64,000 bases of DNA from Eledone cirrhosa (taxonomy: Eukaryota): NCBI GenBank assembly GCA_964016885.1, contig OZ024741.1, positions 406,596,001 through 406,660,000 of the forward strand. The letters run 5' to 3'. Every line of letters begins with the position of its first letter. Position 1 is the stretch's first letter. Position numbers and translations under genes: made by a program. This document shows positions 2,246 through 64,000 of this stretch, piece by piece. Under the pieces are notes generated by a model. It did no database searches, was not told the origin of the DNA, and saw only the letters and a program-made list of their open reading frames with translations.

Positions 2246-5200
2246 TATATATGTGTATGTGTGTGTGTGTGGTCTGTTGGCTTGTGTGTGTGTTATGTGT
2301 GTGTGTGTGGTCTATTTGCTTGTGTGTGTGGTCTGTTGGCTTGTGTGTGTGTTATGTGTGTGTGTGGACTGTTGGCTTCTGTGTGTGGTCTGTTGGCTTG
2401 TGTGTGTGTTGTCTGTTGGCTGTGTGTGTGTTGTCTGTTGGCTGTATGTGTGTTGTCTGTTGGCTGTGTGTGTGTTGTCTGTGTGTGTGTTGTCTGTTGG
2501 CTGTGTGTGTGTTGTATGTTGGCTGTGTGTGTGTTGTCTGTTGGCTGTGTGTGTGTTGTCTGTTGGCTGTGTGTGTGTTGTCTGTTGGCTGTGTGTGTGT
2601 TGTCTGTTGGCTGTGTGTGTGTTGTCTGTTGGCTGTGTGTGTGTTGTCTGTTGGCTGTGTGTGTGTTGTCTGTTGGCTGTGTGTGTGTTGTCTGTTGGCT
2701 GTGTGTGTGTTGTCTGTTGGCTGTGTGTGTGTTGTCTGTTGGCTGTATGTGTGTTGTCTGTGTGTGTGTTGTCTGTTGGCTGTGTGTGTTGTCTGTTGGC
2801 TGTGTGTGTGTTGTCTGTTGGCTGTATGTGTGTTGTCTGTTGGCTGTGTGTGCGTTGTCTGTTGGCTGTGTGTGTTGTCTGTTGTCTGTGTGTGTGTTGT
2901 CTGTTGGCTGTATGTGTGTTGTCTGTTGGCTGTATGTGTGTTGTATGTTGGCTGTGTGTGTGTTGTCTGTTGGCTGTGTGTGTGTTGTCTGTTGGCTGTG
3001 TGTGTGTTGTCTGTTGGCTGTGTGTGTGTTGTCTGTTGGCTGTGTGTGTGTTGTCTGTTGGCTGTATGTGTGTTGTCTGTTGGCTGTGTATGTTTTGTCT
3101 GTTGGCTGTGTGTGTGTTGTCTGTTGGCTGTGTGTGTGTTGTCTGTTGGCTGTGTGTGTGTTGTCTGTTAGCTGTGTATGTGTTGTCTGTTGGCTGTGTA
3201 TGTTTTGTCTGTTGGCTGTGTGTGTGTTGTCTGTTGGCTGTGTGTGTGTTGTCTGTTGGCTGTGTGTTGTGTTGTCTGTTGGCTGTGTGTGTGTTGTCTG
3301 TTGGCTGTATGTGTGTTGTCTGTTGGCTGTGTGTGTGTTGTCTGTTGGCTGTGTGTGTGTTGTCTGTTGGCTGTGTGTATGTTGTCTGTTGGCTGTATCT
3401 GTGTTGTCTGTTGGCTGTGTGTGTGTTGTCTGTTGGCTGTATGTGTGTTGTCTGTTGGCTGTGTGTGTGTTGTCTGTTGGCTGTGTGTGTGTTGTCTGTT
3501 GGCTGTGTGTGTGTTGTCTGTTGGCTGTGTGTGTGTGTTGTCTGTTGGCTGTGTGTGTGTTGTCTGTTGGCTGTGTGTGTGTTGTCTGTTAGCTGTGTAT
3601 GTGTTGTCTGTTGGCTGTGTATGTTTTGTCTGTTGGCTGTGTGTGTGTTGTCTGTTGGCTGTGTGTGTGTTGTCTGTTGGCTGTGTGTTGTGTTGTCTGT
3701 TGGCTGTGTGTGTGTTGTCTGTTGGCTGTATGTGTGTTGTCTGTTGGCTGTGTGTGTTGTCTGTTGGCTGTGTGTGTGTTGTCTGTTGGCTGTGTGTATG
3801 TTGTCTGTTGGCTGTGTGTGTGTTGTCTGTTGGCTGTGTGTGTGTTGTCTGTTGGCTGTGTGTGTGTGTTGTCTGTTGGCTGTGTGTGTGTTGTCTGTTG
3901 GCTGTGTGTATGTTGTCTGTTGGCTGTATATGTGTTGTCTGTTGGCTGTGTGTGTGTTGTCTGTTGGCTGTGTGTGTGTTGTCTGTTGGCTGTATGTGTG
4001 TTGTCTGTTGGCTGTGTGTATGTTGTCTGTTGGCTGTATCTGTGTTGTCTGTTGGCTGTATGTGTGTTGTCCGTTGGCTGTGTGTGTGTTGTCTGTATGT
4101 GTGTTGTCTGTTGGCTGTGTGTATCTTGTCTGTTGGCTGTGTGTGTGTTGTCTGTTGGCTGTATGTGTGTTGTCTGTTGGCTGTGTGTATGTTGTCTGTT
4201 GGCTGTGTGTGTGTTGTCTGTTGGCTGTGTGTGTGTTGTCTGTTGGCTGTGTGTGTGTTGTCTGTTGGCTGTGTATGTTTTGTCTGTTGGCTGTGTGTGT
4301 GTTGTCTGTTGGCTGTGTGTGTGTTGTCTGTTGGCTGTGTGTGTGTTGTCTGTTGGCTGTGTGTGTGTTGTCTGTTGGCTGTATGTGTTGTCTGTTGGCT
4401 GTGTGTGTGTTGTCTGTTGGCTGTGTGTGTGTTGTCTGTTGGCTGTGTGTGTGTTGGCTGTGTGTGTGTTGTCTGTTGGCTGTATCTGTATTGTCTGTTG
4501 GCTGTGTGTGTGTTGTCTGTTGGCTGTGTGTGTGTTGTCTGTTGGCTGTATGTGTGTTGTCTGTTGGCTGTGTGTATGTTGTCTGTTGGCTGTGTGTGTG
4601 TTGTCTGTTGGCTGTATTTGTGTTGTCTGTTGGCTGTGTGTATGTTGTCTGTTGGCTGTGTGTGTGTTGTCTGTTGGCTGTGTGTGTGTTGTCTGTTGGC
4701 TGTGTGTGTGTTGTCTGTTGGCTGTGTATGTTTTGTCTGTTGGCTGTGTGTGTGTTGTCTGTTGGCTGTGTGTGTGTTGTCTGTTGGCTGTATGTGTTGT
4801 CTGTTGGCTGTGTGTGTGTTGTCTGCTGGCTGTGTGTGTGTTGTCTGTTGGCTGTGTGTGTGTTGGCTATATGTGTGTTGTCTGTTGGCTGTGTGTGTGT
4901 TGTCTGTTGGCTGTGTGTGTGTTGGCTGTATGTGTGTTGTCTGTTGGCTGTGTGTGTGTTGTCTGTTGGCTGTGTGTGTGTTGTCTGTTGGCTGTGTGTG
5001 TGTTGGCTATATGTGTGTTGTCTGTTGGCTGTGTGTGTGTTGTCTGTTGGCTGTATGTGTTGTCTGTTGGCTGTGTGTGTGTTGTCTGTTGGCTGTGTGT
5101 GTGTTGTCTGTTGGCTGTGTGTGTGTTGGCTATATGTGTGTTGTCTGTTGGCTGTGTGTGTGTTGTCTGTTGGCTGTATGTGTTGTCTGTTGGCTGTATG

Positions 5201-61554: not shown

Positions 61555-62343
61555 TCTATATCTATGTCTATGTCTATATCTATATCTATGTCTATATCTA
61601 TGTCTATATCTATATCTATATCTATATCTATGTCTATATCTATATCTATGTCTATGTCTATATCTATATCTATGTCTATATCTATGTCTATATCTATGTC
61701 TATATCTATATCTATATCTATATCTATGTCTATATCTATATCTATGTCTATGTCTATATCTATATCCATGTCTATATCTATATCCATGTCTATATCTATG
61801 TCTATGTCTATGTCTATATCTATATCTATATCTATATCTATATCTATATCTATGTCTATATCTATGTCTATATCTATATCTATGTCTATATCTATATCTA
61901 TATATATATCTATGTCTATATCTATATCTATGTCTATATCTATGTCTATATCTATATCTATATCTATGTCTATATCTATATCTATGTCTATATCTATGTC
62001 TATATCTATATCTATATCTATATCTATGTCTATATCTATATCTATATCTATGTCTATATCTATGTCTATATCTATATCTATATCTATATCTATGTCTATA
62101 TCTATGTCTATATCTATATCTATGTCTATATCTATGTCTATATCTATATCTATATCTATATCTATGTCTATATCTATGTCTATATCTATATCTATATCTA
62201 TATCTATGTCTATATCTATGTCTATATCTATGTCTATATCTATGTCTATATCTATATCTATGTCTATATCTATGTCTATATCTATGTCTATATCTATATC
62301 TATGTCTATATCTATATCTATATCTATGTCTATATCTATATCT
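61555..62343. repeat. (TCTATA/TCTATG)n hexamer array, about 130 units
   Basis: Read directly; two interspersed unit types with rare TCCATG variants. Confidence 0.98.
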
Positions 62344-63482
62344 GGGCGGAGGTTACGAACAGGGTGTTTACACTGACCCAGAAGTGGGCCAGTTGCAAAC
62401 TATCCCTGAAAGGTTGGGCGGAGGTGGCGAACACCTATATAGCGTCCGTCATCTACTACCGCCTGACCGTAGTGCCCTGCCCAAGGGAAACCCTCACCAA
62501 GATGGAGCGCGCGCTCTTCCAATTCCTTTGGAAGAGGCGGGCGCCTATGGTGAGGAGATCCATCTGCTGTCAACACCCTTCGAAAGGAGGGCTGGGGATG
62601 CCGTGGCTAATGATGCGTAAACACGCATTAAGGCTACGGCACCTCTACGTATTCCTCACCGGTCAACCGGTGTGGGCCTCGTTTGTGAGACGAACCTTTC
62701 CCAGACTCGTCTCACTCACCGAGCTGCAATCCTGGGTCAAGCAAAGACCGAGAAAACTGGGCGCCTGGCACACTGAGTGTGCCCAGGCGCTCACCGCCCT
62801 CTGGCAGGCGGATCCGGTTATCAGTGGAGACTCCACCGCAACATTCTATAGAGGGCTGGTACGCAGCAGGTGCGACGACGCCCTCGGAGAAGCCCTAGAC
62901 ATGGAGGAGGACGAACTGGCCAGCCTGTTCGGTAGGACATTCAGCCCGGGACCTATGGACAACTTCCAGAAGTCCCTGGCCTGGCAGTGCTACCGAGGGG
63001 CTCTGCCCGTTCGAGAAAAGCTCTACAGACACGGGCGCCCGGGTAGGGACCCCGCCAAAAAGATCTGTTCCAGATGCGTGTGCGACGAGGAAACCGTTGC
63101 ACACGCATTGGTACACTGCTCGGGCGTAGCCGATCTGTGGGGCTATGTCGAACAACTGCTGTCAATGGCGGGACCGATCCGGTTGACCACTGAGTCTATT
63201 GTAATGATCAAGCCGCCTCCCCCCTTCAAAGATGAAGGGGAGGCGGTGTTTCTGTGCGTAATAGCCATGGCGAAAGAGGTTGTATGTTGGACGCGTCTGA
63301 AAGGACTGAGGTCAGGCACCTTTCTCTCTGGCCAACAACTGGTCCGTTTCTTCCGATATCATTTCGGAAGAAGGATCAGGATGGAGAGAGAGGTGCTCCA
63401 CCCCAGTCGTTTTTATGAAAGGTGGGTGAAAGTGGCGAGAATGGCCCGTGTGAATGGGCCTTCTCTTTACATCAGACTATAG
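62343..63482 (+). pseudogene. C-terminal ~380 aa of a Tx1/L1-type ORF2 (post-RT region plus zf-RVT-type zinc finger); no endonuclease or RT core
   Basis: The frame is open from the junction: [15 protein letters not shown]...LSLKG(W)AEVAN...FQFLWK...[10 protein letters not shown]...[14 protein letters not shown]...CSRC-x8-H-x4-C (63066-63119). The listed start at 62364 is an internal GTG. Confidence 0.9.
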
Positions 63483-63733
63483 GTGAGGAAGATGAAAGAC
63501 CAAGGGAGCACCCCTTCTCTGTGCACCTGAGGAAAAGGGTTGCACACTTTTTTCGGGGGTGTGTGCGACCCCCCAAGGCGCCTCCTCTCTATTGAGGATT
63601 TTGTTATAAATTTTATTTTTTGTTATATTTTATTTTATTTTTATACATTGTTATTGCCTCCTCCTTATTGAGGACGCCTTGTTGTGTAAACTCCCCCCTT
63701 TGTACTTGTCCCACTTTTGATGCCCTGGTGGCA

Positions 63734-63739
63734 AATAAA
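63734..63739 (+). promoter_or_regulatory. Polyadenylation-like signal AATAAA at the element 3' end
   Basis: gcAAATAAAAgaaac followed directly by the hexamer array. Confidence 0.6.
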
Positions 63740-63745
63740 AGAAAC

Positions 63746-63926
63746 ATATCTATGTCTATATCTATATCTATCCCTATGTCTATATCTATATCTATATCTA
63801 TGTGTATATCTATGTCTATATCTATATCTATGTCTATATCTATATCTATATCTATGTCTATATCTATATCTATATCTATGTCTATATCTATATCTATGTC
63901 TATATCTATATCTATGTCTATATCTA
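63746..63926. repeat. Second (TCTATA/TCTATG)n array, about 30 units
   Basis: Read directly; same two unit types as 61555-62343. Confidence 0.97.
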
Positions 63927-63931
63927 CCAAC

Positions 63932-64000
63932 ATGGCTGTGCTAAGAGTAGGGTGTCTAAATGCGCGTGGCCTGGGCTCGTCTTGGAAGCAAGCAATGCTT
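63932..64000 (+). CDS. N-terminus of an APE-type endonuclease ORF of a Tx1/L1-like retrotransposon, running off the window edge
   Basis: ccaacATGG context; translates [23 protein letters not shown], matching the (L/I)xxxxxN(V/A)xGL motif I of LINE APE domains. Too short to appear in the ORF track. Confidence 0.78.

Follow-up and report, generated by a model that had tools for sequence, protein, structure and literature searches.

At its 3′ end, the window, i.e. the entire 64,000-nucleotide stretch of Eledone cirrhosa DNA analysed here, carries two retroelement pieces that alternate with arrays of the hexamer (TCTATR)n. This arrangement raises the question whether a LINE inserts specifically into the hexamer, or whether the element itself produces the repeat as a 3′ tail that replaces poly(A), each copy thereby seeding the target for the next.

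Two copies of one LINE family between hexamer arrays

The first (TCTATR)n array, located by TRF at 61555..62343 on the + strand, consists of 85 TCTATA and 43 TCTATG units by unit count and offers 83 TATCT words. It is followed by copy A, a 5′-truncated element whose ORF2 (62344..63482, + strand) retains the last 378 of 1145 residues in a frame that stays open until the stop at 63482 and includes the zf-RVT domain. The 3′ UTR of copy A (63483..63746, + strand) ends in AATAAA-AGAAA-CA without poly(A) and borders the second array (63747..63926, + strand; 18 TCTATA and 8 TCTATG units), in which TATCT is the first word. Copy B starts at 63927, truncated 5 nt ahead of its ORF2 start codon (ATG at 63932), and occupies the remainder of the window up to 64000 on the same strand. 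The original prediction of array, truncated ORF2, array, and APE ORF on the + strand is thus borne out, and its three junctions read as quoted, while the 3′ end of the element has to be moved by one base. TRF places array 2 at 63746-63926, but comparison with other copies and the junction alignment assign GAAA-CA, up to 63746, to the element and let TATCT begin at 63747.

The next 10 kb, fetched beyond the window, extend the order to array, copy A, array, copy B, array, and the head-to-tail chain that had been proposed indeed continues. As a whole, copy B measures 3.7 kb (L031 2928-6634) and encodes an open 1145-aa ORF2 with APE, RT, and zinc finger domains but no ORF1; downstream of it lies a third hexamer array (680 bp, L031 6635-7314). 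Relative to the 5,792-bp reference copy, copy A starts at position 4391, where a CT microhomology of 2 nt is present, and it is 97.6% identical to copy B over 1401 bp. As the downstream APE ORF belongs to the family of copy A, one family flanks array 2 on both sides, and the concern that the two pieces might be unrelated falls away. The locus hence contains two separate 5′-truncated copies of one LINE family. The ORF2 of copy B (L031 2933-6370) differs from that of the full-length copy L074 at 23 residues, 16 of which lie in the APE domain; one of the changes adjoins the catalytic D-x-N motif and is seen in 1 of 40 copies. As it lacks ORF1, copy B is probably not a source copy. Upstream of the chain, positions 2355-61364 of the window are filled by a TG-rich satellite with a 22-bp unit (59 kb, ~2,750 copies, 90% matches; TRF).

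Copies that reach further 5′ share ~2.1 kb more than copy B covers, and the full element comprises 5,792 bp with two ORFs, a 616-aa CCHC ORF1 and a 1145-aa ORF2. The separate upstream ORF1 is missing from both copies at the window; in L074, it displays one CCHC knuckle and a weak Pfam match (E 0.0034). In ORF2, Pfam recognizes Exo_endo_phos, RVT_1, and, slightly below the cut-off, zf-RVT, and the best PDB match is human L1 ORF2 (residues 7-856), with which the APE motifs align. The family is represented by 3,402 exact matches to a 30-mer of its 3′ end in the 3.0-Gb genome. Both 5′ truncation and target-site duplication occur among its copies. The 119 fetched copies include 45 of full length; by a crude ORF test, 32 of the latter have retained an ORF2 of at least 1140 aa, and 22 of these a long ORF1 in addition. 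Nearest neighbours are up to 99.98% identical, by which measure the family is young.

Several features of the untranslated regions are worth recording. In full-length copies such as L074 and L069, a TC-rich stretch of ~15 nt lies between the duplication and the head of the element, and TCTCT precedes 23 of 45 full-length vs 4 of 73 truncated copies; this stretch may stem from a donor flank that was transcribed, or it may constitute a variable leader. Moreover, L074 contains donor-like GTAAG words in the 5′ UTR and directly after ORF1 (1913-2130, 3975-4005) as well as an acceptor-like TTTTGTAG in the 5′ UTR, so that splicing of the element RNA is possible. The predicted fold of the 3′ UTR does not clearly exceed that of shuffled sequences (z -1.78), and contigs of four sequencing runs, compared with the family 3′ end, revealed nothing on transcript ends.

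The junction word and the targeted repeat

To define the junction, we took 80 of the 3,402 3′ ends, namely the first ones among 100 listed for contig C1, and hence without regard to similarity; a further 39 copies chosen by likeness in the APE region bring the set to 119. In the 80 copies, AAAAGAAA is followed by two subfamily-linked bases (CA 50, TA 16, CT 13, TC 1) and then, always at the same position, by TAT[C/A/T]T, which is TATCT in 68, TATAT in 11, and TATTT in a single copy. The preference continues beyond this word as ATCTATC, with 45-78 of 80 copies agreeing per position, and spans ~12 positions in all. Genome-wide, CWTA adjoins 2,453 of the 3,402 ends, a pattern that omits the TA subfamily. 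None of the 119 copies contains A6 within 40 nt of its 3′ end, and the family thus has no poly(A). The orientation is equally uniform, as GATAGATA is found on the sense strand in the flanks of 0 of 119 copies, while TATCTATC occurs in 77 3′ flanks and 66 5′ flanks. The family is therefore site-specific for TATCT and, less often, TATAT, which upholds the central proposal of an APE/RT LINE with a microsatellite-type target.

The repeat offering this word is mostly a different one from that at the window. Among the 80 3′ flanks, (TATC)n dominates in 36, (TA)n in 12, the hexamer and (TC)n in 2 each, and TACC and TCTG in 1 each, while 26 show no 3′ microsatellite; arrays are thus strongly preferred but not obligatory. 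In the whole genome, TATCTATCTAT, representing (TATC)n, follows 1,314 ends, and TATCTATRTCT, representing the hexamer, follows 17. The supply of these repeats is similarly uneven, with 174,303 matches to (TATC)6 vs 2,000 to (TCTATR)4. This corresponds to ~7.5 and ~8.5 junctions per 1,000 units, respectively, a rough ratio, as the junction patterns require ~2 units and the denominators 4-6 and as the hexamer pattern misses 3 of 4 copies located in long hexamer arrays. Since the ratio of junctions resembles that of repeat abundance, the hexamer is used in proportion to its rarity. It offers TATCT in most of its units, and is thus a rare array and one landing site among others. Other copies share the target word, but most of them do not lie in the hexamer.

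Specificity for (TCTATR)n, which every junction in the window would suggest, is consequently very improbable, although a second locus looks alike at first sight: at G000:C1:12,327,500-12,340,100 (L153, L154, L241, L242), a (TCTATR)n array of more than 5 kb carries two copies in the same orientation, and the two loci together account for 118 of 140 matches to a mixed-hexamer 34-mer (93 listed and 25 counted). Against such specificity speak, in addition to the counts of flanks and junctions given above, two hexamer arrays of 2.85 kb and 0.32 kb with no family copy in the 9 kb fetched, and the four hexamer-array copies, which are no nearer to one another than to copies in (TATC)n. As these four do not group, we also rejected a hexamer-preferring subfamily. 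A common origin of both hexamer chains was rejected as well, since their truncation points differ and their copies are not specially close. Even less credible, to the point of being negligible, is the notion that the element inserts at random and merely survives passively in microsatellites. Microsatellites abound in this genome, and passive accumulation has been described for Waldo-A/B (PMC3812793), but the junction word, fixed in all 80 copies, and the single orientation (0 of 119 reversed) refute this explanation. Copies up to 99.98% identical argue in the same direction, as does the use of (TA)n, which, with 17.7 million (TA)12 matches per strand, is ~600-fold lower per site than that of (TATC)n.

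The site is shared by relatives of the family. Another type of 3′ end yields 12,109 matches, of which 10,192 are followed by NN-TAT[C/A]T, and several related families with differing 3′ UTRs and 5′ heads are likewise located at TATCT, nested within the arrays that house the family (loci L064-L224); in the fetched loci, 38 of 43 related-family ends lie on it. At least 13,000 3′ ends in the genome are thus positioned on the target word (~3,400 of the family and 10,192 of related elements), an abundance that is relevant both to microsatellite markers and to the annotation of repeats in this group of animals.

Target duplication, tail, and priming

If the repeat is a target rather than a tail, it should be present on both sides of the copies. 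We found that the 5′ and 3′ flanks agree in repeat class in 30 of 80 copies vs 15.3 in 10,000 shuffles, none of which attained the observed number. After 5′ boundaries had been corrected for internal deletions, duplications of at least 10 bp flank 46 of 80 copies vs 23.9 in shuffles (maximum 31), and 11 of these 80 copies show non-simple duplications vs 0.48 in shuffles (maximum 4). The duplications begin at TAT and extend over ~11-20 bp. Of 18 non-periodic duplications in the 119 copies, 11 start at offset 0, i.e. at the first base past the element, and the other 7 are situated in minisatellite arrays, as judged by inspection of the flanks. No duplication of at least 10 bp was found in 34 of 80 copies; some 5′ boundaries are uncertain owing to internal deletions and mosaic subfamilies.

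These flanks argue against the second proposal of the original prediction, that of a self-made repeat tail replacing poly(A). The missing A6 is compatible with a repeat tail, and 9 of 42 copies with at least 4 TATC units on the 3′ side lack TATCTATC on the 5′ side; further, the TC-rich stretch ahead of full-length copies gives the impression that target-like sequence travels at the 5′ end. The asymmetry is small, however, as the reverse case applies to 9 of 53 copies, and the 3′ flank varies with the local repeat, be it TA, hexamer, or minisatellite, which it matches on both sides. Moreover, the offset-0 duplications start directly after the element without an extra repeat unit, and none of 100 tract-bearing copies displays an added tract followed by a duplication; the 4 hits of this search are ordinary duplications or minisatellite units. 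We therefore consider a self-made tail improbable, and seeding of the target repeat by the element is occasional at most and not the rule.

Elements with an APE-RT ORF2 integrate by target-primed reverse transcription. We estimate a probability of about 80% that the family is a young two-ORF LINE whose 3′ ends are placed on TATCT, mostly within (TATC)n, that is (GATA)n, likely via a nick in the GATA strand and priming by read-through RNA. The endonuclease would nick the GATA (bottom) strand at 5′-AGATA^G-3′, a position suggested by the C that precedes the duplication in 7 of the 11 offset-0 cases. Element RNA would be read past AATAAA into the donor flank and thereby gain UAUCU; in the pairing model, such read-through RNA would carry UAUCUAUC ahead of poly(A). 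UAUCU could then pair with the freed end of the GATA strand and prime reverse transcription, and a second nick would follow ~11-20 bp from the first. As each insertion leaves target on both sides, chains of head-to-tail copies would be likely to grow.

Within this scheme, we lean towards actual pairing of the read-through RNA with the freed target end, which would explain both the exact junction and the loss of poly(A). A less favoured but serious alternative is that the site is determined solely by the endonuclease, with an RNA that stops at a fixed base and no contribution from pairing. The preference over ~12 positions would suit an enzyme of this kind, as the endonucleases of Tx1L, TRAS1, and R1Bm are described as recognizing ~10 bp (PMC1919474). 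An exact junction 7 nt past AATAAA without a run of A is more easily reconciled with pairing, if only indirectly, and an equally indirect argument comes from a second lineage, which is found at (ATT)n.

This (ATT)n lineage (L245-L284, G000:C1) has 7,621 exact 3′ ends, a length of ~6.0 kb, and an ORF2 of 1139 aa that is 67-68% identical to that of the TATCT family (61% in the APE domain). It likewise forms head-to-tail chains with open ORFs. All 30 ends read have TT at +4 and +5, and most run into (ATT)n, which is also present on the 5′ side in 3 of 14 short copies with uncertain boundaries. The endonuclease hairpin plays a role in target specificity. In the stretch aligned with the hairpin region of L1, only three positions differ between the two lineages; the hairpin, which PMC1919474 also connects to specificity, would thus be nearly identical in elements with different flanks, which speaks indirectly against the endonuclease as the sole determinant. 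A stronger version of the pairing model, in which target choice would rest mainly on the read-through RNA, helped by its TC-rich 5′ end, and in which the lineages, as a young radiation of Tx1-like LINEs, would have split into (TATC)n and (ATT)n users and a changed flank would retarget an element, appears rather unlikely to us. If it were true, each copy would inherit its address from its own flank, and a change of flank could retarget a lineage. The close pair of apparently intact lineages, TATC vs ATT, would allow the roles of enzyme and RNA to be separated.

Relation to known elements

With an N-terminal APE, an RT, a C-terminal zinc finger, and a separate ORF1, the family has the predicted architecture of an APE-type non-LTR element of the L1 group, and it likely belongs to the Tx1 clade. 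In phmmer, ORF2 scores 309 bits to a catfish 'transposon TX1 149 kDa' protein and the zebrafish pol-like BAC82609.1 and 168 bits to human L1; the fish Tx1-like proteins are 28-29% identical to the family in the best ORF2 alignment. In a quick tree, which comprised no L1 row and no protein labelled Kibi, Koshi, or Tx1L, the family ORF2, an Argonauta protein, and unnamed proteins form a clade separate from the fish Tx1-like proteins (SH-aLRT 100). From this separation and the low identity, an independent origin of the microsatellite preference is possible. Among named proteins, the nearest comes from Argonauta hians (67% over the RT region), and four ORF2 proteins from public assemblies (P0006, P0007, P0017, P0027; 51-54% RT identity) are placed as sister group of the octopod-like elements in the quick tree. 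Protein searches with ORF2 contained no protein named Tx1L, Kibi, or Koshi among their matches, and a search of the ESM Atlas returned unnamed clusters only. Among metagenome relatives at 16 loci, mostly with 24-33% best-segment identity, the 3′ ends of 7 were read; none is flanked by TATC, and one ends in poly(A). Relatives as remote as these carry no information on the target.

Full-text searches of open papers yielded no LINE that targets (GATA)n or (TATC)n, although Repbase, Dfam, subscription papers, or supplements may record one. The target lists of PMC3812793, PMC4494074, and PMC4640811 do not include these repeats in the text of the papers, and their supplements may list further Tx1 targets. 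Targeting of microsatellites by LINEs is already known, and the family is hence no new kind of system.

Waldo and Mino belong to the R1 clade, and Dong to R4 with a restriction-like nuclease. These microsatellite-specific non-LTR elements differ from the TATCT family in clade and repeat unit, with Waldo at (ACAY)n, MinoAg1 at (AC)n, and Dong at (TAA)n, the last repeat also being found next to the related (ATT)n lineage (PMC3812793). For R1Bm, the I factor, and R2Ol, it has been proposed that priming is helped when the 3′ end of the RNA pairs with the target, as we suggest here, while RTE elements with microsatellite-like 3′ ends have the repeat as their own tail with an overlap of 1-2 bases, unlike the TATCT family with no tail and at least 5 fixed target bases (PMC6007223).

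Human L1 shares the two ORFs, the APE-RT-zinc finger order of ORF2, and a similar duplication length with the TATCT family, but uses poly(A) where the latter has no A tail. It primes on poly(A) at TT/AAAA. Closer in host is Octopus vulgaris, for which 421 insertions of 13 L1-Tx1 families with recent activity are described in a paper whose main text does not contain the word 'target' (PMC13282606); the nearest named protein of the TATCT family likewise comes from an octopod.

In its mode of insertion, the family resembles Kibi at (TC)n, Koshi at (TTC)n, and crocodilian Tx1 elements at (TTCC)n and (TTTC)n, all of them Tx1-clade LINEs of the APE type that insert into microsatellites (PMC4494074, PMC3812793). 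The target preference characteristic of Tx1-type elements is evident in the TATCT family, and both TATC (36 of 80 flanks) and the junction word (80 of 80) lie well above the 20% of flanks that constitute Kojima's criterion. In contrast to these pure-pyrimidine targets in vertebrate hosts, the family uses TATC/GATA in an invertebrate, and with (TC)n dominant in only 2 of 80 3′ flanks, it is outside the Kibi/Koshi lineage by target. The choice of microsatellites by APE elements has been called not well understood (PMC3812793), and with the family described here, (GATA)n, a common animal microsatellite, joins their targets.
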